NCBI GenBank assembly: GCA_903832105.1
Contig: CAILAO010000667.1
Coordinates: 1-44,968, forward strand
Reading direction: 5' to 3'
DNA length: 44,968 nucleotides
Source of the DNA: an uncultured Pseudomonadota bacterium
GTDB taxonomy: Bacteria; Bdellovibrionota_B; Oligoflexia; Oligoflexales; CAILAO01
The notes below the pieces were generated by a model, which was not told the origin of the DNA, searched no databases, and saw only the letters and a list, made by a program, of their open reading frames with translations. Made by a program: the position numbers and the translations under genes. Positions 4,298 to 43,913 of the stretch are shown here, piece after piece. Each line of letters opens with the position of its first letter. Position 1 is the first letter of the stretch.

Positions 4298-4300
4298 TTG

Positions 4301-7786: not shown

Positions 7787-8397
7787 TCCTCGATAGAATC
7801 ATTAAACAAGGGAGCATTGTTCTCGTGTTTGAAGAGGACCTGCTGTACCTGTTCATTAGGTAGTTTTCGTTTCGGCCCTTCGATTGTCGGTTTCCGATCA
7901 ACCAGTCCTTTCGATGGAGATCCCTCATCGAGTTCCGCGAACCTTTCATCGGTTTGCTCAAAAGTGAGCAGAGTGCGAAATGCCGCCCTTGCAGCTTGTT
8001 GTCGATAACCATAAAAACACATGGTAAACCAATAAAGCACGACCTCATCTGGCAGTTCCAAAAGTCCCGACTTGAACATGGTTCTTTGAGGGGTTTTCAA
8101 CAGATACCTGGCTGATACAATCGCTAGGGCTAGCTTCATCCCTACGGCATTGGGAACCCAGTTTTCTGAGTCTGGCTTTAGAATGATCGGTATTACATTT
8201 TCCTTACTGCGAGCCTTAGAGTTAATCAACTCGACAATCGACTTAAGCGTGTCAATTGAATCGCTAGAATTGGCAGATCCCAAAACTATTGCGGCTGCCT
8301 TTGTGGTCATACGATCGGACAAGTTGGGATGCATCTGGATCTCCCAAACCTGACCTTTTTTTGTGTTTGCTTGTATCGATAAACAAAATTTCTCCAT
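7783..8397 (-). CDS. small protein in the position occupied by DUF3780 in DUF499/DUF1156 loci (assigned by synteny only)
   Basis: 204-aa ORF overlapping the upstream stop by 1 nt and the downstream start by 4 nt. No motif recognised. Confidence 0.55.
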   Translation of the reverse strand: MEKFCLSIQANTKKGQVWEIQMHPNLSDRMTTKAAAIVLGSANSSDSIDTLKSIVELINSKARSKENVIPIILKPDSENWVPNAVGMKLALAIVSARYLLKTPQRTMFKSGLLELPDEVVLYWFTMCFYGYRQQAARAAFRTLLTFEQTDERFAELDEGSPSKGLVDRKPTIEGPKRKLPNEQVQQVLFKHENNAPLFNDSIED

Positions 8398-11300: not shown

Positions 11301-12209
11301 GCCAAGGACTGCGCCACGCTCATTGGCTTGAGTAGGAGTCAGATTTTTGACCTGACGACCAGAAATCAAACCGACTTCGTTTACTGATTCCATGACACTT
11401 GAGATGTATTGTTTTAACTCACCCGTTAACCTTCGGTTCGCGTCCTGTTCAGATGGCAATGTAAGGATGACGACAGTTTTGGGTCGTTGTGCCGCTATAC
11501 TGAAAAGTAACTGCAGAAATGTTGGAAATTGGCTGTTGACATGCGCTCGCGGATGATCGTCTTTAAGGGCTAAAGCGCGGGCCATGTAGAGCACTAACTC
11601 GTCAATAAGGATAAGAAGTGGTGCCTCCCCTAGAGATTTGGCAAAGTTTTCTCTCCCAGGCGCTATACCTTGCTCATCGTTGATTCTGATCAGTTCATAT
11701 CCCTTAATACCTCCAGCAAGTGCAGAGATTTGCCCCCACGGCGTGTATACCTTTAAGTTTGCGTCTTCAATGACATGATTTGTCCCGCTCAGCGGATCGG
11801 AGTCCTCACCAACGAAGGCTGCTATCTTGACTGTTCCCGCATCAGGGAACTGCGAAATATTAAAATCTCTTAGACAATGACTAAGCCGCGATCCTTCTCT
11901 TGCTGCATGCACGGCAGCAATTAAACTGTGCGTTTTGCCACCACCAAATCCGGTTTCTAAAAGAAACACGGGCGTGCCACCATCCTTTCCTGCCAAACGC
12001 TCAGTCACATCTTTGATTAATTGTTTAAGGTTCGCAGTCGGATAGGTGCCTCGGAAAAAACGTTCTGGGTTAAGATAATCCTGATGAGTGCCAGCGCGAG
12101 AAATGATAACGTCCCAAAGGTCTGCGGCGAAGATTGCGTCGGGTAACTCCCCCGCTAACACCTCTGGACGAGGTACGCATGTCTCAAAGATTGAGGGTAC
12201 CTTACTCAT
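8397..12209 (-). CDS. large P-loop ATPase, DUF499-like
   Basis: Walker A GFGGGKTHS and Walker B LLILIDELV. The ORF is open to 12326, but ATG 12209 (MSKVPSIF) overlaps the stop of the upstream HTH gene as ATGAGTAA. Confidence 0.8.
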   Translation of the reverse strand: MSKVPSIFETCVPRPEVLAGELPDAIFAADLWDVIISRAGTHQDYLNPERFFRGTYPTANLKQLIKDVTERLAGKDGGTPVFLLETGFGGGKTHSLIAAVHAAREGSRLSHCLRDFNISQFPDAGTVKIAAFVGEDSDPLSGTNHVIEDANLKVYTPWGQISALAGGIKGYELIRINDEQGIAPGRENFAKSLGEAPLLILIDELVLYMARALALKDDHPRAHVNSQFPTFLQLLFSIAAQRPKTVVILTLPSEQDANRRLTGELKQYISSVMESVNEVGLISGRQVKNLTPTQANERGAVLGKRLFDSYSTADAPKVAELYSEYYEKQRNAGAIIDGRAFEPNYREQIQSCYPFHPELVSLFAERLGDIPDFQATRGALRLVAKLIRYVWANRISIPNTLMLHPFHVDLTRNEIRDEILSRLGRMSFERGLEADVVSISATTHSMNVETSWPWKAASESALVTFLHSLPDGSKGITSPEVALSVGRPDVDLSYVPKALEETEKHAWYMRKEGSHYLFRTRASVNKRFQERLVDLRQRPAEVKSVLEDWIKEIFSNFNVFKIIPFPSDQTAIPDHSDHLRLAIIHFDKEVGAVAPGASERLNFVRTLFNNRGSSSEPRIYRNNLLFLLAEGTKTEGLKEAVRSVMAWQHVQEDIIQEQKNVATTENVNFAEMKKKARDNVSGVPAEFMALEDDLIKVKENIGIHEVNVRSRILESYRVLACPRAGSSENESLFSSTPASVLECYRVDFGEVPEGPDSLRRTARRAAAEAPLLQCLRNNGKLVPESTPAQPLVLAAEIIKRPPLWSEAETHISTADVWDRLRREPDLPIVLKQTDILPTFLAGLATNPDPLWSYYDKQEKKLYTRVNSAELNPTLSDTTFLYDVAAAIRENIRPVSTVKTSDISDNLWPREGTLHKPTVSTLKLLDAAKQSPLFPVLPDRPVLWRAMQEGVRENRWILFQKGLNIAVGSQELNEWPSQPRFDDSIELWLYQPAIEKGIYPRRSGPDISDAPSVLQTAINVKARCWSAGSLSMNMEDVERNARNIWRSLTRFDLEEIIKEGIRERVWFLWKKNDEGEFYTDADVHHVRFDPAGEYHLVESASEKLIENLAPLRPGFGPQPIERVNTPRLALTEVWEALAPSPDIRVAELTISVSDRESFDNTLRAAWADRPKNALIHSTLSAQGRRNTGEKDESINLMYEGKFENIQTLMAPIWSFSSGELQVSITATLKFDDPPKLSDQHLEGFRTSLMNADQGQIAVRLVPARRRNRSKN

Positions 12210-12426
12210 CCTGGGATCCTCCATGCAACCCACGCACAGTTCCGTATTTTTTGGATTCGATCCATTGCGCCAGATCAGTGCGAATAAAGCGCCATTGTCC
12301 TCGTACTTTGAAAGCGGGGATTTCACCTCCCTGCACCATCGTATAAACGGTTTTTTCGACCACTCTAAGCATCGCCGCTACCTCTGGCACTGTGAGGATC
12401 TCGGGCTGGATCCAGGTATTTGACAC
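12202..12426 (-). CDS. excisionase/MerR-type HTH DNA-binding protein
   Basis: ILTVPEVAAMLRVVEKTVYTMVQGGEIPAFKVRGQWRFIRTDLAQWI matches the excisionase-family HTH pattern. GTG 12426 is preceded by GGAAGGA. The ORF is formally open to ATG 12513. Confidence 0.7.
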   Translation of the reverse strand: MSNTWIQPEILTVPEVAAMLRVVEKTVYTMVQGGEIPAFKVRGQWRFIRTDLAQWIESKKYGTVRGLHGGSQDE

Positions 12427-14845: not shown

Positions 14846-15982
14846 ATGTCAATCTCGTACGTTTCAGACACAACGAAGTTTATTCTTTGGGGAAAAGCGG
14901 CTGGCCGATGCGAATACTGCAACCGCCCAATTTACTTTGATAATTTGACAAAATGCGAATTCAATACCGCCTATATTGCGCACATAATTGCATCTAGAGT
15001 TGACGGACCGAGAGGGCATCCAACCGAGTCCGAGCGCTTGCGTGGTGACATATCCAACCTGATGCTGCTTTGTGATACGCATCATCGTCTGATTGATAAA
15101 GATGATGTGGAGGGGCATCCTGTGGACCTTCTGCGGGACATGAAGAAGAAACATGAAGAGCGAGTTTTCCTGCAAACCAACGTTTCCAACAAACAAAGCC
15201 ATGTAATTCTTTACGGCGAAAAAGTCGGATACAATAACTCCAACCTCACCTGGGAAAATGCGTTTGAGGCGATGACTCCAGAAAAGTACCCAGCTGAGAA
15301 ACAACCGATTATACTTGGGATCAGGAATAGCGCTCTGTGTGACGACGATCCAGAATATTGGGAGAAAGAGCGCAGAAACTTGAATCTGAACTTTGATCGG
15401 CTGGTGCGCCGCCAAGTTGAGGATGGACATATTGACCATGTCTCAGTTTTTGCGATTGCCCCTCAGCCTCTTCTTATTGAACTAGGGCGTTTAATCTCAG
15501 ATATTAGACCTGCGGAAGTGTACCAACTACAACGAGAACCAACCACATGGCGATGGCAGAATCATCCTGAAGTCAGCTTCCGACTGATACCGCCCGTCAA
15601 GGATCATGACGTTGTTGCCCTGAACATTTCACTGAGCGCAACGGTATCCGACGACAGAATATTCAATGTCTTAGGACCAAAATTGTCTATCTGGACACTT
15701 ACAATAGATTCACCGCACAACGACTTCTTGAAAACAAAAGAATCTTTATGCGGTTTTCGAAAATGCATGCGCACGGCATTCGATAAAATCAAAGCCAAAC
15801 ACGGGCACAACACTGTCCTGCATGTGTTTCCAGCAATGCCTGTGTCTGCGGCAGTCGAATTTGGCAGAGTTTGGCAGCCAAAAGCTGACATGGAAATGGT
15901 CATTTATGATGAGAATCGTAAAATCGGGGGATTTGTGGAAGCCTTCACGCTTCGCGGTCATGATTTTTTGCGCAAGGAGTGA
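14846..15982 (+). CDS. cap5: CBASS effector, HNH endonuclease fused to a SAVED-like sensor (Cap5-like)
   Basis: N-terminal HNH motifs CEYC..AHIIASRVDGPRGH..NLMLLCDTHHRLID, then about 270 aa of C-terminal domain. Lies directly upstream of a CD-NTase. GGAGGA RBS. Confidence 0.75.
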   Translation: MSISYVSDTTKFILWGKAAGRCEYCNRPIYFDNLTKCEFNTAYIAHIIASRVDGPRGHPTESERLRGDISNLMLLCDTHHRLIDKDDVEGHPVDLLRDMKKKHEERVFLQTNVSNKQSHVILYGEKVGYNNSNLTWENAFEAMTPEKYPAEKQPIILGIRNSALCDDDPEYWEKERRNLNLNFDRLVRRQVEDGHIDHVSVFAIAPQPLLIELGRLISDIRPAEVYQLQREPTTWRWQNHPEVSFRLIPPVKDHDVVALNISLSATVSDDRIFNVLGPKLSIWTLTIDSPHNDFLKTKESLCGFRKCMRTAFDKIKAKHGHNTVLHVFPAMPVSAAVEFGRVWQPKADMEMVIYDENRKIGGFVEAFTLRGHDFLRKE

Positions 15983-15988
15983 AAACAC

Positions 15989-17110
15989 ATGTATAAGCTA
16001 ACATCTGAGAACCTGGGACGCCTCTTGAATGAGCTGTACGAACATCTTGACATTCCACCAGAGAAACTGTTGCTTGCAAAAGAAAAATACATACATCTTG
16101 GGCAGTGGTTAAATCAAGATGCCGCTACAAATTTCAGAAATAGTTCTGAACTATATCTGCAGGGCTCAGCACTTCTAGGGACAGGAATACTCCCGATAAA
16201 ATTTGGAGACGAATTCGATTTAGACCTTGTCTATCGACGTGATATTCAAAAAGAATCAATCACTCAGACCGACTTAAAAAGGCAGGTTGGCGACCAGTTG
16301 GGGAGATATGTAAGCTACCTCTGTAATTCCAAGGATCTTGATATTCCCACCTTGGAGGAGGGCAAGCGATGTTGGACTCTTCGATATTCTGGGCGGTTTC
16401 ATATGGACATTTTGCCTGCGCTTCCTGATCCAGCATCTGAGTCTTTAATAAAACCCACAGACGGCATTTTGATCACAGACAAAGATCTTTCAAAGTGGCA
16501 ATTTAGCAATCCAAAAGGATACCACGTTTGGTTTCGTCAATCGATGATACACACATTGAATGAAAAGAGGTTGGCGTTGGCGAAATCGGCTAACGTTTCT
16601 GTGGAGGCAATCCCTGAGGATACTGTCAAAACAACCTTACAGAAAGCGATTCAAATCTTGAAACGTCATCGGGATTCGTGTTTCGAGGGAAACCCCAAGA
16701 ATAAGCCGGCTTCTACAATAATTAATACTCTTGCTGCCCTTGCATACAATAACAATGACGACATTGTTAATGATCTTCACCACATTGTGAATAACATGGC
16801 AAAGCATATCGAGACTCGAGGAAATGAATTATGGGTTCCAAATCCGATAAATCATAAGGAGAACTTTGCCGACCGATGGAGAGATAACAAGGAAAAGGCA
16901 GATGAATTTTTCCGATGGTTAGATTTGGCGCACGATACGTTTTCGATGCTGGCGATTGAAAATAACGAAAACAGTATTGCAAATCTGCTGTCGAAATCTT
17001 TCCGTATCGAAGGTGCTGAAAAGATTGCGAAATCGGCATATACACGTGCCGCGTTGGCAGCAGCAGCCAGCACGGTCACAAAAAAAACAGATCCGTGGAG
17101 TCGATCATAA
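15989..17110 (+). CDS. cGAS/DncV-like nucleotidyltransferase (CD-NTase)
   Basis: LQGSALLGTG...GDEFDLDLV (GS + DxD) and RFHMDILPA (third acidic residue). AAGGAG RBS. Confidence 0.85.
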   Translation: MYKLTSENLGRLLNELYEHLDIPPEKLLLAKEKYIHLGQWLNQDAATNFRNSSELYLQGSALLGTGILPIKFGDEFDLDLVYRRDIQKESITQTDLKRQVGDQLGRYVSYLCNSKDLDIPTLEEGKRCWTLRYSGRFHMDILPALPDPASESLIKPTDGILITDKDLSKWQFSNPKGYHVWFRQSMIHTLNEKRLALAKSANVSVEAIPEDTVKTTLQKAIQILKRHRDSCFEGNPKNKPASTIINTLAALAYNNNDDIVNDLHHIVNNMAKHIETRGNELWVPNPINHKENFADRWRDNKEKADEFFRWLDLAHDTFSMLAIENNENSIANLLSKSFRIEGAEKIAKSAYTRAALAAAASTVTKKTDPWSRS

Positions 17111-17111
17111 C

Positions 17112-17765
17112 GTGATTTTTGCATCTTCACATTTAAAAGATATTGAGTCAGCAATCAAACCATACCCTGCGTTGAGATTGATCAGTAATGGTTTTCCAGA
17201 AATAGTCGGCACCTGGCATGTGCAACACCAAGGCGAGATCTTGGTGAGCTACGAGATAAGGATAACCTTTGACGCAGAATATCCTCATTCGCTTCCAAAA
17301 GTTTACGAGGTATCAGGCAAGATAGCACGATCTCCCGATATGCACCTCAATCCTCCGGATTGGCATGCTTGCCTTTTCGTTTCGCATCAGCGTTGGGAGA
17401 TTTGGCCTATCGGTTCACCGTTTGGATATTTTCTGGATCTTCCGGTTCATAATTTTTTCTTGGGCCAAGCTCATTATGCGGCAATCGGTTATTGGCCGGA
17501 TCATAGAGAAAGGAGTCACGGTGACTGCGGGATAATCGAATATTATCGAGAAAAATTTAACTGCCTTGATCCAAATGTGATCCTAAATCTCTTGACTTCT
17601 CAGATTCCTGACAAGATACCTCGTCAACGCAGATGCCTATGTGACAAACAGAAGCGTCTTAAGTACTGTCATGGCCCAGTTGCAAAATTGATTCAGAAAA
17701 ACCAAGAACCTGTTTTGTTGCGGCAAGCGATAGAAATATTTCGACAACAAGCAGCCAAAAAATAA
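17112..17765 (+). CDS. prokaryotic E2-like (UBC-fold) protein with a SEC-C-like Cys/His tail; type II-short CBASS accessory protein
   Basis: EYPHSLPKVYE...MHLNPPDWHACLF resembles the E2 HPN..C active-site motif. C-terminal CLCDKQKRLKYCHG. GTG 17112 sits 2 nt after the CD-NTase stop. The ORF extension back to 16956 overlaps the CD-NTase gene. Confidence 0.7.
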   Translation: MIFASSHLKDIESAIKPYPALRLISNGFPEIVGTWHVQHQGEILVSYEIRITFDAEYPHSLPKVYEVSGKIARSPDMHLNPPDWHACLFVSHQRWEIWPIGSPFGYFLDLPVHNFFLGQAHYAAIGYWPDHRERSHGDCGIIEYYREKFNCLDPNVILNLLTSQIPDKIPRQRRCLCDKQKRLKYCHGPVAKLIQKNQEPVLLRQAIEIFRQQAAKK

Positions 17766-28934: not shown

Positions 28935-29276
28935 ATGTTTGAAAACAAAGAAATTATCCACCGAAAATACCAAATTATTATGAGCGAAATTGAGCAAAAA
29001 TATGAGCTAGCGCCAGTACCTGAATCCGCGATGCATTTTTACCGGTTGGTTTCATTGGTTTACCACGGCAAATTACGGATCTATTTTGATCTGTATGGAT
29101 GGCTTCAAATCAGCCCAGCTCTGGCTGAAATGGGATCGCGAGATGTGCTAGGTCGAGGTCTTTCCCTGTTTGAAAAAGACACCATAAATTTATTGAATGA
29201 ACGTTGCGCCGAAAAAGAACGCCAGAAGGCAATTCCGCTTCTCACCGAACGATGCGGGGGAGGGAAGTCGTTATGA
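28935..29276 (+). CDS. hypothetical protein
   Basis: 113-aa ORF, AGGAG RBS, ATGA overlap with the next gene. Confidence 0.65.
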   Translation: MFENKEIIHRKYQIIMSEIEQKYELAPVPESAMHFYRLVSLVYHGKLRIYFDLYGWLQISPALAEMGSRDVLGRGLSLFEKDTINLLNERCAEKERQKAIPLLTERCGGGKSL

Positions 29277-29584
29277 ATGCTATTGCCGAAACTAATGACC
29301 GTCTGAGAAAAAATATCCCATTGATCTGGCCGCCACATAGACTCGTGTTGACGCGCCGGGTGGCCTCGATGCCGGAAGATCTTCTCAAACGTGTCTTCGA
29401 GGCCGTGAGAGCGTTCGACAACTTCAACCGCGATAACGACCCATATCACGAGCACGATTGTGGAATCGTTGATGTCGACGGCGACAGGTTCATTTGGAAG
29501 TTTAACTACTACGATGACGACTTCGAGTTTTTTCGGGAGAACGGTAACCGGGTGTTAACGATCATGCACGCGTCAGAGTACTGA
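29273..29584 (+). CDS. DUF3768-like protein (family common on plasmids and integrative elements)
   Basis: NRDNDPYHEHDCGIVDV..FIWKFNYYDDD...RVLTIMHASEY matches the remembered DUF3768 pattern. ATG 29273 follows a GGGAGGGAAG RBS. Confidence 0.65.
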   Translation: MNAIAETNDRLRKNIPLIWPPHRLVLTRRVASMPEDLLKRVFEAVRAFDNFNRDNDPYHEHDCGIVDVDGDRFIWKFNYYDDDFEFFRENGNRVLTIMHASEY

Positions 29585-29655
29585 TTTTATAGAACAAAAA
29601 TGGTTGCGATAACATATCTTAGGCTAACCAATCATGACAAAAATGAGGTGTTATA

Positions 29656-30594
29656 ATGGAAAATCTGCCGCAAAAAGTGGATAAATTTGGTTCGGATAAG
29701 GTTTTCCCAGTGCTTCTTGCCCGATACTTTCGGGAGGAGATCGCGGGAAAATCGCCGCTCACCATCAAGGCAAAGAAAGACGACTTAAAGAAATTTTTGA
29801 TATTTTACCAAGCTATGAACGGTCACCTTCGCGCAGATGAATGGATGGTGAGAGACACGAGACTTTTCTTGGACGAGCTTCAAAAGCAGAGTTACAGCCC
29901 TGCTACGATCAATCGCGTTCTTGCTACGCTCAAGAGTTTTGGTTCTTGGCTTCGAGAAGTTGACGTACTCAGAGTCCTCCCTTGCAAGGGTATAACTGAA
30001 CTTCATCTTGAGCCATTACCACCCAAAGCGATTCGGGATATCGAGTTTCATAGGCTCAACAAGTCTGCTGATGTTCTGGTCAATGGTGGCAGTGCAAAGT
30101 ACTCGCAGGATTTTCGAAACAAAGTCATGTTGGCGACCCTTGATGCCAGCGGACTCAGGGTATCCGAGCTTCTCAATTTGAAGTCAGACCAGCTGCAAGG
30201 CAAGAAGCTGGTGAACGTTCGCTGCAAGGGCGGCCATGTCCGAGATGTTCTTATTAGGCAGGACGTAGCTGAAATGATACGTGAATATGTTGAGCAACAA
30301 CGAGTGGCAGGCTCATCGTTTCTTTTTACAAACCGCTACGGTGGGCAGATCAGCAGGAATGGCGTTGCAAATGCCTTCGACAAAATCGCAGGCTACGCCA
30401 ACGCATCCTTGCCTATTGACCAACACATTAACTTAACTCCGCATCTGCTTCGGCACCGGCATGGATTCAAATGCCGAGAGGCCAAGGATCCGGTCTTTGC
30501 GGCCAAGAGGCTTGGACATAGGAGTTTAACGTATGTGGAGCGCTATTCAAAAATGAATGACGGTGAGGAAAGTGTGGTTCTCGAAAAAGTCTAG
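29656..30594 (+). CDS. tyrosine recombinase/integrase (XerC/D-like)
   Basis: SAM-like N-terminal domain, GLRVSELLNL (Arg), HLLRHRHGF (HxxR), LGHRSLTYVERY (His and Tyr). Confidence 0.9.
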   Translation: MENLPQKVDKFGSDKVFPVLLARYFREEIAGKSPLTIKAKKDDLKKFLIFYQAMNGHLRADEWMVRDTRLFLDELQKQSYSPATINRVLATLKSFGSWLREVDVLRVLPCKGITELHLEPLPPKAIRDIEFHRLNKSADVLVNGGSAKYSQDFRNKVMLATLDASGLRVSELLNLKSDQLQGKKLVNVRCKGGHVRDVLIRQDVAEMIREYVEQQRVAGSSFLFTNRYGGQISRNGVANAFDKIAGYANASLPIDQHINLTPHLLRHRHGFKCREAKDPVFAAKRLGHRSLTYVERYSKMNDGEESVVLEKV

Positions 30595-31940: not shown

Positions 31941-34322
31941 TTACGACTCCATACGAACATAAACAATCTTCCGGCCTCGGCGCTCCGGACGAAGGTATTT
32001 CTTCGATACAAGCCAATTGAGAAAAGAGTTCCAACTGGGCCTCTCCCCCCTACGGTCCTCCGTCCTGTCGATGTAACCCCTCTCACCGATACAGGAGTCG
32101 ACGTGACTCAACCTGGACTCGGCAGCATCAGATCGACCATGCCAGCCCACCAGAAGGGGATTTAGGCTGTCTGGTTGGGGTGGGGGCGGGATTTCAATCT
32201 GGTCGCCCCTCAAGAACGTCGTTATTCCATGTGAAAGCGCCGCAAGTTGATACTCGAGCGAATTAGCTCGATTGACCGCGTTGGGTACGTCTTTTTCGAA
32301 TGCTCTGATCAGCTCCTGCGTGGTCACAATCTGATTTTGGAGGAACGATGGAAAGGCGAGTGGGTGAAGGTTCCCTGCATATAGACACACTGTGAGTTCG
32401 GCATCTCGCGGAGCCCTCATTAGAGCCTGAACCAAGGCCCGTGTTTGTTCATAAGAAATTAGGTCCCAGATCGTTAAATTGGGGTATTTTTTTCTCGCTT
32501 CAAGAAAAAGGGTGATTTGGTTGTCCCAATTGGCAATCCCATTTCCGATTACGGTACAGACGTTGAAGTGCCTCCTATTAAGTCCCCGTGACCATGCGCT
32601 GCGCACTTTGTCGATCGAAAGCAGCGCTGACCTACACCCAGAATCCGCTTCACGTGCACTGTCGAGATCGAGTTCAACGTAGTCTTTTTTCCGGTTTTCA
32701 ATTCTGAAAGTGGATCTCATCTTGCTATCACCACATACTAACCCAAAAAACGCATTGGCTTGTTTGGTATTGGTTGCGAAGTGAAGAAGCGTAATATCGG
32801 GAATTTTTGCTTGGATTAACCCATACAACTTAGCAGCAGCCCATGGAGGCAACTCTTTTGGTTCTGGTTCTTCGGGGCTCCAATGGTTGTGAACGACGAT
32901 CATTCCGCTCCGGTGAAAGGGAACTTGAATATTTGTGAGCGTGAATTCGGATTCATCGGCCAACAATGACGCACCGATCATCCTGGCGGAAAGAAGGGTT
33001 CCAGAAAATGCCTTGCAGTTTCTTTCGTGTAGGTACGCCTTGACGCGATCGTAGTGATGCGTGTTCAAATAGCGAAGCTTTAATCCACAGCGATCATAGC
33101 CACCCCGGCCGTTTTGAAGAGGATATTTTTGTGGAACAAGGTTCATCTCACCTGGCGCGTTCTGAACAAAATCAACGAAGGCAAGAAAAGCATTTAGCCC
33201 CGAAATATCTGCGGGCTTGTCTGGATCGCTCCAAAGACCTTGTTTGAGCGAACGCATGCGCATTTTGTCATCATTGAATTCCGACATATCACCCAAAGAA
33301 GTGTACCCTTGTTTCGTCACAGGCTCAGTCTTTATGGGATACGCGAACTGCGCACCTTCATCATGGTGAGGTTCCATGATCTCAATGGCAGTGGCTTCAT
33401 TCGCATTTTCAAGGGATCTTAAGTAGTCGAGTGTGGTCTGGCCCTCAATATATTCAGGAAGTATCGAGATGACGCGATTCAACACCTGGCGAATATTATC
33501 GAAATGAAAAAGATCACATATGTACCCCCTGCGTACAGCCGTTTCAACGTTGGTTATCGCAACGCTGAGAAGCTCAAAGAGGTTTTTCTTGTTTGAAATC
33601 CCCCCGAAGTCCTCTATCCGGCCGGAGTAAGGATGAAATTTGTGGCTGCAACTATCGGAAAGGTGTGGATGACAATCCTTGCACGCTCCACCACATTCAT
33701 CTCGAATCGTGGACGTTTTGCATTTTCTAGGCTCCATTAATACGAGAGCCCGATTGCTGTTGTTTGAAATGCCATCAATCAGCGCATCCATCTCATCGAT
33801 GTAGACGTGATCGACTTTGATCTGCTCCAGGATGTCAAGCGCTGGATAGCTTGAGAAATAGGCATGGCATGCGACCACAACCCTCGGATGCTCGGCGAAA
33901 GCAAGGATGCGGCTCAACATCGTTGGACAGATTTCGAATTGGGATGACAGCTCTTGTAGGAGGGCGAGATCAACGATCTTTCCATTTACAAGATCATAGA
34001 GTTCTTCCCCAAGTTTGCGTGGCTTTCCTTCCCCTTCCGATGAAAGGAGGGCTAACGCCTTTTTTTGGTAGGCACATCGTGAGCACTGTGCCCTATTTGC
34101 TTCTTTGATGCATGTTTCCTTACGCTTCCCTGTAAGCTGGACGATGTATCCTTCCTCAAAAGGGTTCTTCCGCGCCATGGTTATGGCCTCAGTGCCCGCA
34201 GCATGTGTTGGCACGACATTAAGCACGGATCTGCCCTCATTCAGTTTTTCTATCGATTTGGCTGCCATTTGATAAGTCTTGCCGGCTGCAAGCGGGGCAT
34301 TTGCAAATTTAATCATTGTCAA
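31941..34322 (-). CDS. XPD/Rad3/DinG-like SF2 helicase with a putative 4Fe-4S cluster domain
   Basis: Walker A APLAAGKTY. Cys cluster ETC..QCSRC...EICP between motifs I and II. VVVACHAYFSS, YIDEMDAL (DExD-like) and motif VI-like QALMRAPRD. Confidence 0.7.
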   Translation of the reverse strand: MTMIKFANAPLAAGKTYQMAAKSIEKLNEGRSVLNVVPTHAAGTEAITMARKNPFEEGYIVQLTGKRKETCIKEANRAQCSRCAYQKKALALLSSEGEGKPRKLGEELYDLVNGKIVDLALLQELSSQFEICPTMLSRILAFAEHPRVVVACHAYFSSYPALDILEQIKVDHVYIDEMDALIDGISNNSNRALVLMEPRKCKTSTIRDECGGACKDCHPHLSDSCSHKFHPYSGRIEDFGGISNKKNLFELLSVAITNVETAVRRGYICDLFHFDNIRQVLNRVISILPEYIEGQTTLDYLRSLENANEATAIEIMEPHHDEGAQFAYPIKTEPVTKQGYTSLGDMSEFNDDKMRMRSLKQGLWSDPDKPADISGLNAFLAFVDFVQNAPGEMNLVPQKYPLQNGRGGYDRCGLKLRYLNTHHYDRVKAYLHERNCKAFSGTLLSARMIGASLLADESEFTLTNIQVPFHRSGMIVVHNHWSPEEPEPKELPPWAAAKLYGLIQAKIPDITLLHFATNTKQANAFFGLVCGDSKMRSTFRIENRKKDYVELDLDSAREADSGCRSALLSIDKVRSAWSRGLNRRHFNVCTVIGNGIANWDNQITLFLEARKKYPNLTIWDLISYEQTRALVQALMRAPRDAELTVCLYAGNLHPLAFPSFLQNQIVTTQELIRAFEKDVPNAVNRANSLEYQLAALSHGITTFLRGDQIEIPPPPQPDSLNPLLVGWHGRSDAAESRLSHVDSCIGERGYIDRTEDRRGERPSWNSFLNWLVSKKYLRPERRGRKIVYVRMES

Positions 34323-37300
34323 AAAACTCCTTTAATAAACTTCGCGACAGCTCCTGAAACTCTTCGAATGTGGGTGCTTTTTCACCAAGAATTCGAGGGG
34401 TGGTTCTCCTTTCGATATCCCGCCTGTAACAACGGCTATGATCGCAGACCATCGACATCTCGGCACGATCACATCCACAATCAGAAAAAAGTGATGTCTT
34501 GAACTTTTCGTTTAGGCGATAGCCACAGTGATCCCCTGCGGGGTTTGGGTGGCATTCAAGAACACCATAACGATGCGGATCCTCAAAGAGCAGGAATAGC
34601 TGACAGACATGATCTTCCGAAAGGCCAGCGCGGCTTGCTTCATAGATGAGCTTACACCGTCCGCTAAAACCGATGCTTTCCCCCTTGGAAACTAGCTCGG
34701 AGAGATTCTTGAGGCAGGGCGCGATCTTTTTTGTACGAGACAGAAAACCCTCAATCTGAGAATTGATGTCCTTTTGGCGATTGGTGGATCGCCGATATTC
34801 CTGGAAACGAGTTTCTCCCGTGACAGCTTTGAACACCTGGCGCGAAACCTTGGTGAACTCGTGGGGTGGATATGGCAACATGAAGCGGCTTTTGACGTCA
34901 GGACTTTCTTGCGGAGGAAGATCTTGCAAGCGTCTCGTAAGGCCTTCGAGATCCTCGTGTTCAGGTGGGATTTCCACCATCATTCCGCCGCCAGGGTAAA
35001 AGCTATGCGGAATCCTTATGATTTGAGTGGTGTCAAAAATTGTTTGATCAATCCTAGCGGCAAGATCTTCTGGGACCTTGGTTTTGAGATGACGCATTAA
35101 GGCTGCGTATTTTTCGGGCAGGCATAATATTGGTTCCGGCACGAAGTAATGGCCTGAAACCCTGAGGTAGAATGACTTTCCTCCATTAAAGTACAATTTT
35201 ATCTCGTTTTTTGGTATCTGGAAGTCCTGAACCAAGACCCGTTTGATGTGCTTCAAAACTTCATACGCCTTTGTTGTTTTTTGTTCGTCATCAAAGGTTC
35301 CCTCGCCCTCAACCCAGAAGTCGCCATACTTTTTGAGGTTTTTTAAGATTGAGTTCCTAGCCTTGGATGGTCTGTCCCGACACAGGAAGCCATAAACTGA
35401 AAAATAGACGTCAGTCTCGCGGTGCTTTTGGAGGAAGTCTTGCAAGGCGTCATAGTCGTCGACCTGAACGAAGACATTTCGCTGGACCAATGCATCGAGT
35501 TCACCTTTTTTGGCGCGCTTCACGTTTGCTGCCAGGTTGATCCAAAGGCCAGGGGATTTCTGATCTACAGAAGAACTGGTAAGCACTGTTTCCGAGAAAT
35601 CGGAGTCGTTAATGAGGCGTGTGAAGGCATCTTCCGTGAATGCAGGTCGAAAGACGGAGAGCTTTTTCTTCAAGGATGAAAGGTAATAATCGATGTCATA
35701 GTCATCTGCGGAAAATGAGTTGATATGAGCATAACCGTTGTTTGACTTGAAATACTGCACTACAGATAACGCTGGCGCATCCACGAAACCCGCTTGTAGC
35801 ATAACTTCGAAGTGGCAGACTTTGGACTTTGTTTGTTCGATATAGGACTTCATCGACTGTCCCATTTTTTTCTTAGTAACAAGGTCTTCCGCGTTGCACC
35901 GTTGCTCGACGATCTGCCGCCTGGTCTCTTGGATTCTCCGGTGAATTTCTTTGGTGTTGTCTTTCAATAGACTGTACAGGACATCTCGCATGAGTGTTCT
36001 GAAGAGGGGTTCCATACCTCTGCTTTTAAGGGCGGCACCGACAATATGAACTCCGTGTTCGGTGAGAATGGCGTAGGTCTTCTTCGCTAATACGACAACC
36101 GAATCCCATGGTTTTTCCGAATCCGCGGTAACCTTGACACCGGGAAATATGGAAAGTGTGTTGTTAATTTTATCTGCGAAGGCACGAGGGGTCACCTGCT
36201 CCGGCAACACACAAATGACACCGTCGGTATCAACTTCAAGAGGCTTGCCGCCTTGCTCAAGAATGCATTCGATAATTTTCGAAAGAATTTCTCGTCCTCG
36301 TTTGGTGATAGCGGCAGCCCCTTTTGGATTGTTGAAGAGCCCGCGTTCGTTAGCGAGGTAGCCAAAAAGGCTGTTAATCAGGATCTTCAGGGCGGATTCT
36401 ATTGCTTTTGATTCGGGATTGGTCTGTCCGATGGCCTTGTGCTTAAGTCGAAGTTTAGTCCAATTTTCTGTCAAAATCAGGAAGATTCCCAAAGGATCGG
36501 TGTGGGGACAAATCGAATCCATCATGATAATGGAGGGGTACATCGAACTGACGTCAATTTTACAGCAGTGTCGAAAAAAGCCTTTGTGATAAACCTCAAC
36601 GGTAGCGCCTTCAAAGGGTTCCGTGGATTGGGGCTTTGGAACGCTATGATTCTGTCGAAAGTAGGCGCGAATAATGGTGAGCTCGATCGGCTTTGTGGAT
36701 CCTGTCGTGCAAACTTTGGAGAATTGGATTGGCACCATCTGAGAAAGCATGAACTTGTCACGATGTAGCTTTCGAGAAAGCGCTTCGACTTCCGCCACGT
36801 CATCCAGAGCATATTCGGCCACCTCATCTGGATTAACCATATATGTTTCGTAGATTTTATCCCCGTCGATGTACTTTCTTCCGTCTCGGGCCAAACCAAA
36901 AAACTTGGCGACATACTTCAACCCGTGTTCTCCTAGTTCACGCTTGACAGCGTCGTATCGTTTCACGGCATGCAGTGTATCTACGATTTCACGCCCATGG
37001 AGGCAATAACGTGTGAATGATTCGGCCGTTTCCCCGATCTTTAGGGAGTCTTTGTAACTAAAAAATCCTTTGCCGTCGCGTCCCCAGGTGATGGGGATTT
37101 GGTGGATTTGATGTCTTTTGATCAGAAAGGGAATGTCAAAGCCAAAAATGTTGTGGTTTTCGATGATGTCGGGATCCAAACTCCGAATGACTGCGTTCAA
37201 TTCCTCAAGTAGTTTGGCCTCATCGAGGCCATGGATAACCTTTTTTAACCCTTCGGATGTTGATATTGCAACAAGGAAAACGCGCTCGTGATCGCTGTTG

Positions 37301-37857
37301 AAGCCGGTGGTTTCAATATCAATCTGAAGCCGAAGAACATCCTCGAATTTCATGTTTTTGTAGAAGGTAACGCCTTGGCTGATTTGAAACTGCTCAGTGT
37401 TGTTTAGCGAGATAATCTCGGTGATTTCCCGGACTGATGGAGCGGTTTTGCCGGTAACCGCCTCGTAGGCTGACCTAGCAGATTCTTCAAACGCCTCTTT
37501 GTCAAAAATCTCAGCTCGGTAGCGGTAATGAAGATTGCCTTTGAGGTTAATGAGTTTGCAACCCTTGAGTTTCACGGCAATCGCTTTATTGCTGATGAGA
37601 GCCCAAGGGGTGAATGTCATTCGTTCCTTGATGACCTTGTCGTCTATGCGCCTGAATACAGTTGCACGGCCATTTGAAGAGGCTTGCAATCCAACGATGT
37701 TGGTCAGGCGGCTATGACCGAAAAGAATTTCTTCGGTTGATGGATCATACCAGGTGCTAGGCCGGTTTGGTTCTTCGACATACCCAGCTAAGCACGGTTT
37801 AGATGTACTCAGCGATGGGTGTTCAGCGACCCGAATTTTGGTGGTTTCGGTCTCCAT
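34309..37857 (-). CDS. family B DNA polymerase (exonuclease-proficient) with a ~440-aa C-terminal primase-like and Cys-rich extension
   Basis: ExoI LQIDIETTGF, ExoII NIFGFDIPFL, ExoIII YALDDV. Motif A DVSSMYPSIIM, motif B KILINSLFGY, motif C EVDTDGV, KxY AKKTYA. The C-terminal part has FWVEGEG, LYFNGGKSFYLRVS, IIRIPHSFYPGGG and a CxnHC..CGC..C..C cluster. Confidence 0.9.
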   Translation of the reverse strand: METETTKIRVAEHPSLSTSKPCLAGYVEEPNRPSTWYDPSTEEILFGHSRLTNIVGLQASSNGRATVFRRIDDKVIKERMTFTPWALISNKAIAVKLKGCKLINLKGNLHYRYRAEIFDKEAFEESARSAYEAVTGKTAPSVREITEIISLNNTEQFQISQGVTFYKNMKFEDVLRLQIDIETTGFNSDHERVFLVAISTSEGLKKVIHGLDEAKLLEELNAVIRSLDPDIIENHNIFGFDIPFLIKRHQIHQIPITWGRDGKGFFSYKDSLKIGETAESFTRYCLHGREIVDTLHAVKRYDAVKRELGEHGLKYVAKFFGLARDGRKYIDGDKIYETYMVNPDEVAEYALDDVAEVEALSRKLHRDKFMLSQMVPIQFSKVCTTGSTKPIELTIIRAYFRQNHSVPKPQSTEPFEGATVEVYHKGFFRHCCKIDVSSMYPSIIMMDSICPHTDPLGIFLILTENWTKLRLKHKAIGQTNPESKAIESALKILINSLFGYLANERGLFNNPKGAAAITKRGREILSKIIECILEQGGKPLEVDTDGVICVLPEQVTPRAFADKINNTLSIFPGVKVTADSEKPWDSVVVLAKKTYAILTEHGVHIVGAALKSRGMEPLFRTLMRDVLYSLLKDNTKEIHRRIQETRRQIVEQRCNAEDLVTKKKMGQSMKSYIEQTKSKVCHFEVMLQAGFVDAPALSVVQYFKSNNGYAHINSFSADDYDIDYYLSSLKKKLSVFRPAFTEDAFTRLINDSDFSETVLTSSSVDQKSPGLWINLAANVKRAKKGELDALVQRNVFVQVDDYDALQDFLQKHRETDVYFSVYGFLCRDRPSKARNSILKNLKKYGDFWVEGEGTFDDEQKTTKAYEVLKHIKRVLVQDFQIPKNEIKLYFNGGKSFYLRVSGHYFVPEPILCLPEKYAALMRHLKTKVPEDLAARIDQTIFDTTQIIRIPHSFYPGGGMMVEIPPEHEDLEGLTRRLQDLPPQESPDVKSRFMLPYPPHEFTKVSRQVFKAVTGETRFQEYRRSTNRQKDINSQIEGFLSRTKKIAPCLKNLSELVSKGESIGFSGRCKLIYEASRAGLSEDHVCQLFLLFEDPHRYGVLECHPNPAGDHCGYRLNEKFKTSLFSDCGCDRAEMSMVCDHSRCYRRDIERRTTPRILGEKAPTFEEFQELSRSLLKEFFDND

Positions 37858-40058: not shown

Positions 40059-40622
40059 ATGACACTGAATGGAGAGAAATGTAGTTTGCATAGGCGGGAA
40101 CCGCATCAACGCTGCTCCCGTCGCGTCAAACCCCTAGAGCGGAGATGGAGGATCACCGAGAATGCCGTGTATTTTGCAGGTTGGGGCCTCTTGGAATATG
40201 AGAAAGACGCTGCTGATAAAGTAATTGGCGTGCATCTTGGTCGTGGCGCTCCGGTAGATCTCCTACAACAGTGTTATCGAAAGCTAACGTGCTCATTGTG
40301 CAAGCGGGAGTTGTGGGCCGACGAGTTTCATATTAAACGTCGAGGTCTGGCTCTCGAAGGCCCCTTCGCCAAATTTTGGCCTCGCCGAGAAAGCCGCTGC
40401 ATCGAGTGTGAGAGGAAGGTCAAAAAGGCTCAACATAGACACCGCAAAGCCAAAAGACTCCTTCAACAAAAGCAGTCACCGCGTCCGCGTCAGTTGCGAA
40501 TTGTAGATCCAAGAAAAATGTTGGTAAAAGAACTCCGATGGCAGAGTTCAGACGAAGTAGCCTTCGATCTGAAGCGATTGTTAACAGATTTTGCAGCGGA
40601 GGTTTTTCTCGATGAGACTTAA
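40059..40622 (+). CDS. basic Cys-containing protein, translationally coupled to the serine recombinase
   Basis: 187-aa ORF with CSLCKRE...RCIECERKVKKAQHRHRKAKR. Its stop overlaps the recombinase start (ATGAGACTTAA). The start codon is uncertain. Confidence 0.5.
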   Translation: MTLNGEKCSLHRREPHQRCSRRVKPLERRWRITENAVYFAGWGLLEYEKDAADKVIGVHLGRGAPVDLLQQCYRKLTCSLCKRELWADEFHIKRRGLALEGPFAKFWPRRESRCIECERKVKKAQHRHRKAKRLLQQKQSPRPRQLRIVDPRKMLVKELRWQSSDEVAFDLKRLLTDFAAEVFLDET

Positions 40623-42297
40623 AAAGGGAGACTGGCTCCGTGTTTGGGCTTTGGCTCGTGTATCAACCACCGCACAAGCCAACGTCGAACACGGGAGCCT
40701 TGAACAACAAAAAAACATGATGAAAAGGTGGGCGCAGGAACAAACTAACAAGACCGGAACTACGTTTGACTTGAGAGACGAACACATAATTGAAGAAGAT
40801 ATTAGCGGGCGTGCATCTTCTGTTCACAAGCGAACCGGGCTTAATTCTATTCGTCGCGCCATCCGTCAAGGCGAATGCGATGTGCTGGTGATCGAGAAAA
40901 TCGATAGATTAGCTCGAGACCAAAACCTTGCGCGCACTATACTTCAGGAAGCAGCTGACCACGGTGTACTGGTTTATGAAATCGAGTCAGGACTCATCGA
41001 TATGCGAGACAGGGGTTCGCGTCTTGGCTTTAACATCAAAAACATGATGGCCGAAGAATACAGCCTTGACCTCGAGGAAAAAATCACCAAAAAGCTCCGT
41101 GAAGCCATGGTGAATAATGGGAAGGGCGTATCGACATGTGCAGTGCTCGGTCTCGACCCTCATCCGGTTCGCGCTGGTTTTTACGTGAAAGTTCCCGAGG
41201 AAATCGTGGTTGTCCAAGACATCTATGAGCAGTTTTGCATACTGAGATCCTACACGGCATTGGCGGAATATTGCAGTCAAAAGGGTTACCGCTCTAAGCC
41301 GAGAATCATCAAAGAAAAAATCGTGCGTGGTGAGAGGGTGGCGGCACGCAAAGTTGGCGGAGAGACGATGTGTCCGAAGTATCTTCGTGCTCTTCTCACA
41401 AACCCAAAGCTCCATGGTGGCTCATCTTTCAAAGACACGTGGAACCAATTTCCGCAGCTTCAAGACGAGGACCAAAACGTACGTTGGGAATATGCTCATG
41501 GTCCAGTTATTGACAAGGCACTTTGTGATCGAGTTATGACGACCATCAGGGAGATTGAGGGTCAAAGACTTCGAATTAGCGAAAGCCGAGGTGTTTATCT
41601 TTTGTCCGGTGTTCTGGTGGACGCCAACGGCAACAAATTCTATGGGTCGCGCGCAAAAGCGGGGCAATTTCATTATTATGTTTGTGGTAAGACAGGGGCA
41701 CGTTTACCAGCTGACTTGATGGACGACGTGGTTATCAAGCGAGTGAAGGAATACCTTCAAAGCAGCGACCTAATGCGAGGTATTTTGGAGACAGCTCTGA
41801 AACACCAGAATGTCGGTTTGCCTGCGATCGATGCTGAGATGGCGAAGATTAAGGGGCGGATCAAGAACCTTGAAGATGTGGTAGAGCGTTTTTCAACTTC
41901 ACTGCGTGAGTCAGCTTTGTCTGGTGTCGCCAATATTCCAGAAGTCTGTGCCGCCCTTCTTGGCGAAAAAAAGAAAGCTCAAGCAGACCTTGCCGCCGAG
42001 CAGGCAAAACTTGATGACTTTGCTCGGAGGCGGGAGCGGATCAAGAACCAACAAGCCGGTCGGACGATAGAAACCTACCTTCAACAAGCCCTCGCAAAGT
42101 TCGACGAGAAATCCGACCTGATGAAAAAGCGCATCGTTCAGGCGATCGTGCCGCAAGTCATTGTAAAATCAGAAGAAGAAATTGTTTTGATGATAAATCC
42201 AGAGCCTTCCGATGTTTGTCACATTGGAGGTAAAGAAGTTGTTTTAAAGGAAGAAGAGCGGGATGGACGGGACTTGAACCCGCGGCCTCCGGCGTGA
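40612..42297 (+). CDS. large serine recombinase
   Basis: RVWALARVSTTAQ (catalytic Ser), DVLVIEKIDRLARD, recombinase domain and C-terminal coiled-coil region. ATG 40612 (MRLKKG). Confidence 0.9.
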   Translation: MRLKKGDWLRVWALARVSTTAQANVEHGSLEQQKNMMKRWAQEQTNKTGTTFDLRDEHIIEEDISGRASSVHKRTGLNSIRRAIRQGECDVLVIEKIDRLARDQNLARTILQEAADHGVLVYEIESGLIDMRDRGSRLGFNIKNMMAEEYSLDLEEKITKKLREAMVNNGKGVSTCAVLGLDPHPVRAGFYVKVPEEIVVVQDIYEQFCILRSYTALAEYCSQKGYRSKPRIIKEKIVRGERVAARKVGGETMCPKYLRALLTNPKLHGGSSFKDTWNQFPQLQDEDQNVRWEYAHGPVIDKALCDRVMTTIREIEGQRLRISESRGVYLLSGVLVDANGNKFYGSRAKAGQFHYYVCGKTGARLPADLMDDVVIKRVKEYLQSSDLMRGILETALKHQNVGLPAIDAEMAKIKGRIKNLEDVVERFSTSLRESALSGVANIPEVCAALLGEKKKAQADLAAEQAKLDDFARRRERIKNQQAGRTIETYLQQALAKFDEKSDLMKKRIVQAIVPQVIVKSEEEIVLMINPEPSDVCHIGGKEVVLKEEERDGRDLNPRPPA

Positions 42298-43361: not shown

Positions 43362-43913
43362 ATGAACTTTGACAATTTATCACAAGAATTTCAGCATGCT
43401 TTTAAAAAACTCAACGAATGGCTCAAGAAAAATAATATGTCAATGCAGATTCTCATGGGTGGTGCAAGCGCTATGCGTATCGCAGGCATTATCTCCAGAG
43501 ACAGCAAAGACATCGACTCATTTATAGCAATATGTAGTTCTATTAAAGAAAGAATAAAAGAAATCTCCGAGGAACTTGGCTTAGATTATGATTGGCTTAA
43601 CGATCAAGCAAGCGCTATCCCTCTTCCTGACGGAGCGGAGGGTCGATGCCAAGAATTAGAAACACCATTAACAAATATTAAAATAAGTATTTTGTCTCGA
43701 AAAGATATGATAATTCTCAAAATTAACGCTGCTGTAACAAGAGGCGAACAAAGAGATATAGATGATCTTTTGATTGCAAAACCAACAAAAACTGAATTCG
43801 ATGCAGCCGTATCCTACATCAAAACTAAACAGCGCCCTGACGATCTTCAGTTCCAAGAATACCAAGATCAAGACATAGAAACCCTAAAAAAAGGCCTATT
43901 TAGAAATGAATAA
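43362..43913 (+). CDS. minimal nucleotidyltransferase-fold protein (MNT/AbiEii-like GG..DID motif)
   Basis: ILMGGASAMRIAGIISRDSKDIDSF. AAAGGTG RBS. Confidence 0.55.
   Translation: MNFDNLSQEFQHAFKKLNEWLKKNNMSMQILMGGASAMRIAGIISRDSKDIDSFIAICSSIKERIKEISEELGLDYDWLNDQASAIPLPDGAEGRCQELETPLTNIKISILSRKDMIILKINAAVTRGEQRDIDDLLIAKPTKTEFDAAVSYIKTKQRPDDLQFQEYQDQDIETLKKGLFRNE

Follow-up and report, generated by a model that had tools for sequence, protein, structure and literature searches.

The polymerase gene and its tail

The window analysed here is the whole stretch of contig CAILAO010000667.1, 44,968 nucleotides from an uncultured Pseudomonadota bacterium. On its reverse strand lies a gene for a protein of 1182 residues, which begins with a family B DNA polymerase (PolB) and continues into a long tail, and this gene is followed by one for a helicase candidate (Table 1). 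The tail was found to carry a catalytic domain from the superfamily of archaeo-eukaryotic primases (AEP) and a helical domain with four invariant cysteines. According to the reading that we consider probable, the gene encodes a replicase with two active sites belonging to a bacterial mobile element, in which the AEP domain would prime, PolB would extend and the helicase would unwind.

In Pfam scans of the 1182-residue open reading frame (ORF), the exonuclease and polymerase domains of PolB were identified within residues ~180-680, with no match downstream. The exonuclease motifs ExoI (QIDIETTG), ExoII (NHNIFGFD) and ExoIII (YALDDV) as well as the polymerase motifs A (DVSSMYPS), B (KILINSLFGY) and C (VDTDG) were all present when read in the translation. 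The nearest solved structures found by phmmer in the PDB were archaeal PolBs, Pol epsilon N and E. coli Pol II. As these are primer-dependent enzymes, the module was classed as primer-dependent too, and its motifs predict an intact, proofreading polymerase. At its other end, the protein closes with a helix (PTFEEFQ...), which in fused relatives is the connector into the helicase.

A primase fold in the tail

The initial annotation had proposed a divergent AEP domain in the PolB tail, and structural and profile comparisons both led to the same fold. An AlphaFold2 model of the tail, built from a nine-sequence alignment, reached a mean predicted local distance difference test score (pLDDT) of 79.7. 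When this model was compared with the PDB by Foldseek, all of the 50 best matches were AEPs, headed by the poxvirus D5/E5 primase domain (E 6e-5, probability 1.00) and including M. tuberculosis LigD-Pol, Pyrococcus PriS, human and yeast Pri1, CAPP Prim-Pol, herpes simplex virus UL52 and African swine fever virus PrimPol. Among the viral structures of BFVD, the best match was a 336-residue phage protein (E 8e-13), and the named matches were mostly primases, such as 'AE_Prim_S_like', a Salinibacter phage primase, pithovirus primases, LEF-1 and vaccinia D5.

Run by hmmsearch against 1.84 billion representative proteins, a profile of the tail matched 893 of them at E <= 1e-3. Among the 150 matches listed, those outside the protein's own family were mostly proteins of ~340 residues (E 1e-22 to 1e-13), and annotated matches included the ORF181 primase of Bacillus phage 0305phi8-36 and the 'MCM domain family protein' of phBC6A51. 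Ten matches were sampled, of which seven contained Pfam DNA_primase_S and eight PriCT_1, some of them fused to MCM or DnaB_C. Comparison of the tail alignment with 40 such phage-type AEP+PriCT-1 proteins by hhalign gave a probability of 99.9% (E 9e-33) over 328 columns, with the four Cys aligned. The profile of this phage-type family in turn matched S. solfataricus PriS (1zt2, E 2e-7) and residues 793-1061 of the window ORF (E 3e-23). NCBIfam PriS matched the tail directly, with E 1.3e-4 under the curated cut-off, and so did the PHROG 'primase' (E 0.0013). Two AEP profiles run over all ORFs of the window found no match besides the polymerase-primase ORF.

That the resemblance is coincidental, and the tail an unrelated PolB extension such as a CysA/CysB-type metal-binding C-terminal domain (CTD), is an idea already refuted, with next to no probability left. 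Searches with the tail as a single sequence gave nothing significant in Pfam or the PDB, phmmer returning from the PDB only a chance match to shikimate kinase (E 1.3), and a word-indexed homology search with the tail alone gave zero matches, the tail itself included, which the exhaustive profile search exposed as a sensitivity artefact. Opposed to this, the hhalign and hmmsearch values were obtained against bona fide AEPs, the Foldseek matches were uniformly AEPs, and the four Cys stand in the register of PriCT and PriL. A chance likeness of motifs was rejected on the same values. The proposal was largely right: judged by profiles and model, residues ~760-1182 appear to be a real and unusual AEP primase module, composed of a catalytic and a four-Cys helical domain.

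Catalytic motifs and an altered active site

Three blocks had been named as AEP motifs in the initial annotation, and all were found within a few bases of their assigned places: GDFWVEGEG exactly, LYFNGGKSFYLRVS starting at 35155 instead of 35161, and IDQTIFDTTQIIRIPHSFYPGGG at 34984-35052. Motif columns were read from an alignment of 156 matched stretches, 93 of which carry the combination D/D/H. In the first block, E850 and E852 occupy the two Asp columns, confirming ExE in place of the DxD metal site. The second block corresponds to the sGxRGxH strand, with NGGKSxY where the closest canonical relatives have SGxKGxH: N891 stands for Ser, G892 for the invariant Gly, K894 for Lys/Arg, S895 for Gly, and Y897 occupies the His column (His in 108 sequences). 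The third block was recognised as the motif III/IV region, as D937 lies in a column with Asp in all 143 sequences having a residue there and R948 in one with Arg in 142 of 143. R948 sits 11 residues past the motif III Asp, in an 'R-h-P' strand, and from its position in the alignment with PriS we infer that it is the motif IV Arg. It had been noted correctly that the motif II His and the canonical Asp pair are not conserved, Tyr and Glu/Glu being found in those columns. E850 and E852 lie on a predicted beta-strand (FWVEGE) and are both acidic and invariant in the clade, and the first-position Asp of motif I, defined as hhhDhD/E (PMC5862659), is absent.

Nine aligned tails, 26-39% identical to that of the window, keep E850, E852, D937, R948 and Y897 without exception, and further invariant positions of the AEP domain are D816, Y818, D846, F847, N891, G892, K894, S895 and P955. 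The two Glu, D937 and R948 are also kept in nearly all more distant members, and the clade linked to PolB carries the fixed variant ExE + NG.KS.Y. A divergent branch of ~1900 residues (P0143, P0144, P0152, P0158, P0182, P0264) retains ExE, D and R and has Val or Leu at the His position, and another member of the ExE clade (P0146) has Trp there. On the basis of the alignment, the ExE/Tyr site is classified as a putative active-site variant that is new within the AEP superfamily.

These replacements could also mean that the tail is an AEP-derived pseudo-enzyme, a scaffold that links PolB to the helicase or to DNA while primers come from the host or another primase, in resemblance to Pol epsilon's inactivated C-terminal module. 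The initial annotation had left room for an inactivated or structural domain. We consider this unlikely, even though the canonical DxD and the motif II His are both replaced and, in divergent members, Val, Leu or Trp has taken the place of the former His. Even between very divergent members, little or no change is seen in the three carboxylates, the motif IV Arg, NG.KS and the four Cys, which is unexpected for a decayed site, and a pseudo-enzyme fits poorly with strict conservation of all metal-ligand and nucleotide-contact positions but the His. A change from Asp to Glu keeps the metal-binding chemistry. The motif II His is itself family-specific, being replaced by Gln in the biochemically active PolpTN2, which needs the downstream motif IV Arg for activity, and varying between His, Tyr and Gln in the PrimHYQ family (PMC5862659). 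Inactivation is weakened as an option by the invariant carboxylates and Arg, the fixed ExE/NGGKS and these AEPs that are active without the His or bear a Tyr, and the failure of the two AEP profiles to match a further window ORF also speaks for priming by the tail.

The four-Cys domain

A Cys/His cluster had been noted behind the AEP domain. A Cys-rich stretch is indeed present there; however, its segment CHPNPAGDHCGYR (34516-34554, residues 1102-1114) is not conserved in relatives, no His of the domain is invariant, and C1048 lies outside the cluster first described. The invariant residues of this region in the nine-sequence alignment are P1047-C1048, C1129, C1138 and C1143-Y-R, giving the spacing C-x81-C-x8-C-x4-C with C1048, in 'PCLKNL', 81 residues before the next Cys. 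CHPNPAGDHCGYR forms a loop between conserved helices of the domain and adds two Cys and two His which are particular to the window protein and missing in most relatives.

A profile of the domain matched nine PDB sequences, all nine being the C-terminal 4Fe-4S domain of yeast PriL, with weak values (E 0.08-0.39), and PCLKNL...GR.KL was aligned with PLCIKNL...GRQQL. We take the Cys of yeast Pri2 aligned with PCLKNL to be the first 4Fe-4S ligand, and the distance of 81 residues between the first and second Cys presumably equals that of yeast PriL. Pfam DNA_primase_lrg was reached by one of nine family members (E 0.0014). Against the C-terminal regions of the ~340-residue phage relatives, hhalign gave a probability of 94% (E 1e-7). 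Sampled members of these phage relatives match Pfam PriCT_1, and the relatives share the pattern PC...GC...C...C, in which each Cys is 93-99% conserved. An AlphaFold model of the isolated domain had a pLDDT of 84. It has been argued that homology connects PriCT-1 and PriCT-2 with the N-terminal half of the PriL Fe-S domain (PMC5862659). By these matches, residues ~1022-1150 are predicted to be a primase accessory domain of the PriCT-1 / PriL-CTD type, and the four invariant Cys probably hold a metal centre, either a 4Fe-4S cluster or zinc. The primase reading is strengthened by this assignment, as the region is not a generic Cys/His cluster. A CTD of the CysA/CysB type, the helical domain by which eukaryotic and archaeal PolBs bind their B subunit, was rejected, since just four conserved Cys are found in the PriCT/PriL register and not two C4 motifs.

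The adjoining gene for a helicase candidate

The helicase candidate of 793 residues resembles superfamily 2 (SF2) helicases of the XPD/DinG type. It contains Walker A (AAGKT) and Walker B (DEMD) motifs, between which lie the invariant Cys C71, C80, C83 and C132. Pfam DEAD_2, which covers the XPD/DinG-type region, matched three of five helicase members, the best value (E 4.9e-7) being that of a relative. A helicase profile run against the PDB gave only a chance match to NADH-quinone oxidoreductase (NuoCD). The start of the gene, either TTG (34320-34322) or ATG (34314-34316), overlaps the TAA stop of the polymerase-primase gene (34309-34311), and an AAGGAG at the junction represents an internal Shine-Dalgarno sequence. 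Judged from this arrangement, the helicase of the window is predicted to be translationally coupled to the polymerase-primase.

Relatives and the fusion pattern

Whether homologous PolBs carry the same tail had been raised by the initial annotation, and the tail proved common to about 30 metagenomic relatives. In a search with the full protein, eight metagenomic proteins aligned across the tail (P0002-P0006, P0011, P0038, P0051), a ninth tail-bearing protein (P0012) was truncated within it, and more than 100 ordinary PolBs of 700-800 residues ended before it. Domain mapping of the ExE-clade proteins with their N-terminus present found PolB upstream in nearly all; the exception, P0125 with 449 residues, has its start at the tail and is possibly incomplete. 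Single chains are formed by about a dozen relatives, with lengths of 1870-2093 residues and the order PolB, AEP, four-Cys domain and helicase, whereas the helicase is a separate gene in the window and for P0002-P0004 and P0124. At L002, the locus examined for this, the helicase gene adjoins the polymerase-primase gene. An assembly chimera was rejected as explanation, because the architecture recurs in more than 20 clusters from NCBI, ENA, JGI and Logan. The source labels of the relatives read only 'DNA polymerase' or 'RNase H-like domain-containing protein', and a primase or helicase part is named in none of the labels inspected. A search of genome contigs with the window protein gave no match, and a genome-contig scan recovered only the contig of P0003 itself, binned to a Pseudobdellovibrionaceae metagenome-assembled genome.

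In the fused forms, the tail is inserted exactly between PolB and helicase, a placement that would also suit a scaffold. The same can be said of the closest tail-less PolBs (P0009 and P0010; loci L003-L006), near which a VapE-like/DUF5906 gene and an integrase are found, suggesting that priming or unwinding can be supplied separately. At L003-L006, the two AEP profiles matched no ORF. The link between the helicase and the polymerase-primase in function, which counts in favour of a replicase, is drawn from the Rosetta-stone fusions together with the overlapping genes and the internal Shine-Dalgarno sequence of the window.

Some further observations concern these relatives. P0143, P0144, P0148, P0152, P0158, P0182 and P0264 (~1870-2030 residues) form a divergent branch of the fused family, with ExE, the motif III Asp and the motif IV Arg kept and Val or Leu replacing the Tyr; the four Cys are nearly always kept in it, and the PolB profile matches it over positions ~300-630 only, so that the exonuclease part may be degenerate. 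The tail-less P0009 and P0010 PolBs are located just downstream of an ORF of 317-320 aa without a Pfam match and of the VapE-like/DUF5906 gene, a neighbourhood in which the same PolB lineage may have a different module for priming or helicase action. Directly upstream of the fused P0005 (2045 residues), an ORF of 97 aa (L008, 5882-6175) matches the DnaG-type zinc ribbon (PF01807). Directly upstream of the polymerase gene, the small ORFs show no conservation from one locus to the next, those of the window and L009 being unrelated to that of L008.

Comparison with known systems

Phage-type PriS-like primases with PriCT-1 (0305phi8-36 ORF181; the phBC6A51 primase-MCM) share with the window protein the unit of an AEP followed by a helical domain with C...GC...C...C, and have the DVY strand, the motif III D, the motif IV R and the four Cys in common with it. 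They stand alone (~340 aa) or are fused to MCM or DnaB helicases, and a fusion to PolB occurred in none of those sampled. They also retain DxD and SGxKGxH, in contrast to ExE and NGGKSxY of the window clade.

These relatives bear on the question of whether the AEP domain is active in another role, as a PrimPol-type polymerase for lesion bypass, end-joining or terminal transfer that helps PolB past obstacles. Many AEPs of bacteria and mobile elements are repair enzymes or multifunctional PrimPols, LigD-Pol appears among the structural matches, and the altered motif II could mean a changed nucleotide preference. Nevertheless, such a role seems quite unlikely: the closest sequence relatives are replicative phage primases, which frequently form fusions with MCM or DnaB helicases, an initiation domain like that of PriCT/PriL is kept, and the gene is tied to a helicase and a PolB of the replicative type. 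A primase that serves its own polymerase is the reading followed below.

An AEP is likewise fused to a PriL-like Cys-containing domain in PolpTN2 of plasmid pTN2 and in the primase of Nanoarchaeum equitans. PolpTN2 shares with the window protein the lack of the motif II His, for which it has Gln, and is active in dependence on the motif IV Arg (PMC5862659; PMC3973330). Both belong to other AEP families, carry the canonical DxD and have neither PolB nor helicase.

Single-chain replicases consisting of helicase, primase and PolB have been named HelPrimPolB (PMC7544198). One of these, GP55 of lactococcal phage 1706, unites helicase, AEP primase and proofreading PolB in one polypeptide, as does the window family in its fused forms, and experiments showed that it primes and extends by means of two distinct active sites (PMC12205980). 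It thus provides a precedent for a helicase-AEP-PolB fusion with both activities (PMC12205980). GP55 has conserved AEP motifs A-C and a novel alpha-helical domain, without a PriL or helix-bundle domain (PMC12205980). The order of domains is reversed, Hel-Prim-PolB in HelPrimPolB/GP55 and PolB-Prim-(Hel) in the window family, and an arrangement of N-terminal SF3 helicase, PrimPol and C-terminal PolB was not found in the window protein. The helicases differ as well, being N-terminal SF3 in HelPrimPolB/GP55 and XPD/DinG-like SF2 of the DEAD_2 type in the window family, and GP55 has neither the PriCT-1/PriL-like four-Cys domain nor the ExE/Tyr site.

The same functional parts, namely PolB, a PriS-type catalytic domain and a PriL-CTD-like Cys domain, are assembled in eukaryotic Pol alpha-primase. 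This enzyme is a complex of four subunits in which Pol alpha is exonuclease-dead, whereas the window protein is a single chain with intact Exo motifs. The latter has a minimal PriL-CTD-like domain and no PriL N-terminal domain, and the link to PriL-CTD is weak (E 0.08-0.4). Searches of full-text literature brought up no description of an AEP/PriCT unit placed behind a PolB, whether or not an XPD-like helicase was attached. We classify PolB-AEP-four-Cys(-helicase) as a new fusion architecture.

A proposed replicase

In the replicase proposed here, the AEP domain would make a short primer de novo, and the helical domain would position the initiating nucleotide and the template, a task that falls to PriL-CTD and PriCT in other AEP primases. 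Within the polypeptide, the PolB active site would then take over the primer and extend it processively and with proofreading, and the XPD/DinG-like helicase, coupled in the window and fused in relatives, would unwind the template. Functionally, this would be a single-chain analogue of Pol alpha-primase plus a helicase. A need for primers speaks in favour of this proposal, as the PolB is predicted to be primer-dependent and nothing else in the window matches the AEP profiles.

Several points weigh against it. Priming is a prediction for every member of the family, derived from profiles and models. Pfam scans of the window's own tail reach no primase model and give only a spurious PLU-1 match, and Foldseek with the isolated Cys domain found no entry at E <= 0.001, PriL-CTD entries appearing at E 5-9. 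The double-Glu motif I falls outside the definition of hhhDhD/E (PMC5862659), and a full-text literature search for archaeo-eukaryotic primases together with ExE and DxD found no paper. The motif II His is replaced by Tyr897, and by Val, Leu or Trp in divergent members; with such variation, no specific chemical role seems left for this position. As to the helicase, the window's own DEAD_2 match has E 0.027 under the curated cut-off.

More tentatively, and with some doubt, the family might represent a second, independently assembled single-chain replisome of bacterial mobile elements, ~2000 residues long, in which PolB, priming by an ExE/Tyr AEP and a metal-cluster domain are combined with a monomeric-type 5'-3' Fe-S SF2 enzyme as replicative helicase. 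If true, an SF2 helicase would stand in for the usual hexameric replicative helicases of SF3, SF4 or SF6, and polymerase-primase(-helicase) fusions would have at least two separate origins, with different parts assembled in each. The window family resembles a bacterial one-chain counterpart of Pol alpha-primase, and its fixed ExE/NGGKSxY offers a natural experiment on whether dinucleotides can be formed with Glu-Glu ligands and no motif II His. Primer-free DNA amplification, a use already proposed for GP55, could profit from a compact enzyme able to prime, to extend with proofreading and possibly to unwind.

Genomic context

The window also encodes recombinases of the tyrosine and serine types, a DnaB_C-only protein, an Hma defence system and a CBASS operon, a gene content in keeping with a mobile element or genomic island. 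Direct or inverted repeats were not found at the ends of the 44,968-base contig. A tblastn search of the tail against phage records gave no match, two IMG/VR scans gave no close relatives, and nothing here links the element to a virus. PADLOC matched the polymerase-primase and the helicase to no component model of a defence system.

Table 1. Positions of the polymerase-primase gene, its domains and motifs, the helicase candidate and neighbouring features in the window.
Feature	Position	Strand	Remarks
Whole ORF, 1182 aa, with PolB, AEP primase domain and four-Cys helical domain in this order (predicted)	34309..37857	-	
PolB module, residues ~1-745	35623..37857	-	Pfam DNA_pol_B_exo1 and DNA_pol_B; PDB phmmer E 1e-24; motifs from translation
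AEP (PriS-like) catalytic domain, residues ~770-985	34903..35550	-	Foldseek, profile matches, hhalign, NCBIfam PriS
AEP motif I GDFWVEGEG, residues 845-853	35299..35325	-	E850 (35308-35310) and E852 (35302-35304) for DxD
AEP motif II LYFNGGKSFYLRVS, residues 888-901	35155..35196	-	Y897 (35167-35169) in His column
AEP motifs III and IV IDQTIFDTTQIIRIPHSFYPGGG, residues 936-958	34984..35052	-	D937 (35047-35049), R948 (35014-35016)
Predicted helical primase accessory domain, PriCT-1 / PriL-CTD type, residues ~1022-1150	34408..34794	-	
Invariant Cys	C1048 (34714-34716), C1129 (34471-34473), C1138 (34444-34446), C1143 (34429-34431)	-	
Cys-rich stretch, residues 1102-1145	34423-34554	-	
C-terminal helix	34312..34380	-	Invariant F1164/E1166/F1167 (PTFEEFQ...)
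Gene junction	34309..34332	-	AAGGAG at 34327-34332, within the last codons of the polymerase-primase gene
XPD/DinG-like SF2 helicase candidate, 793 aa	31941..34322	-	Walker A, four Cys, Walker B, DEAD_2
Hma locus, four genes	866-12326	-	PADLOC
HmaA-like SNF2 helicase	866-4297	-	
HmaB DUF1156 adenine methylase	4301-7786	-	
Unassigned 204-aa ORF within Hma locus	7783-8397	-	
HmaC DUF499 ATPase	8397-12326	-	
CBASS-type pair	14846-17110	+	
SAVED-HNH endonuclease effector	14846-15982	+	E 1e-148
Oligonucleotide cyclase (CBASS)	15989-17110	+	E 9e-105
ORF overlapping CBASS cyclase	16956-17765		
DnaB C-terminal domain protein, 272 aa	22333-23151	-	Pfam DnaB_C E 2e-54
DUF3768 ORF and tyrosine recombinase	29204-30594		Tyrosine recombinase at 29656-30594
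Large serine recombinase	40591-42297		
DUF6036 / AbiEii-like nucleotidyltransferase	43362-43913	+	Pfam E 5e-13

The polymerase-helicase pair is flanked by the DUF3768 ORF and the tyrosine recombinase on one side and by the large serine recombinase on the other. The pair occurs together with DUF3768 and a resolvase on L002 too, a contig binned to Pseudobdellovibrionaceae, and this company suggests a conserved mobile-element backbone. The DnaB_C-only protein consists of the C-terminal, RecA-like domain without an N-terminal helicase domain. The DUF6036/AbiEii-like gene is probably a component of a toxin-antitoxin or abortive-infection system.

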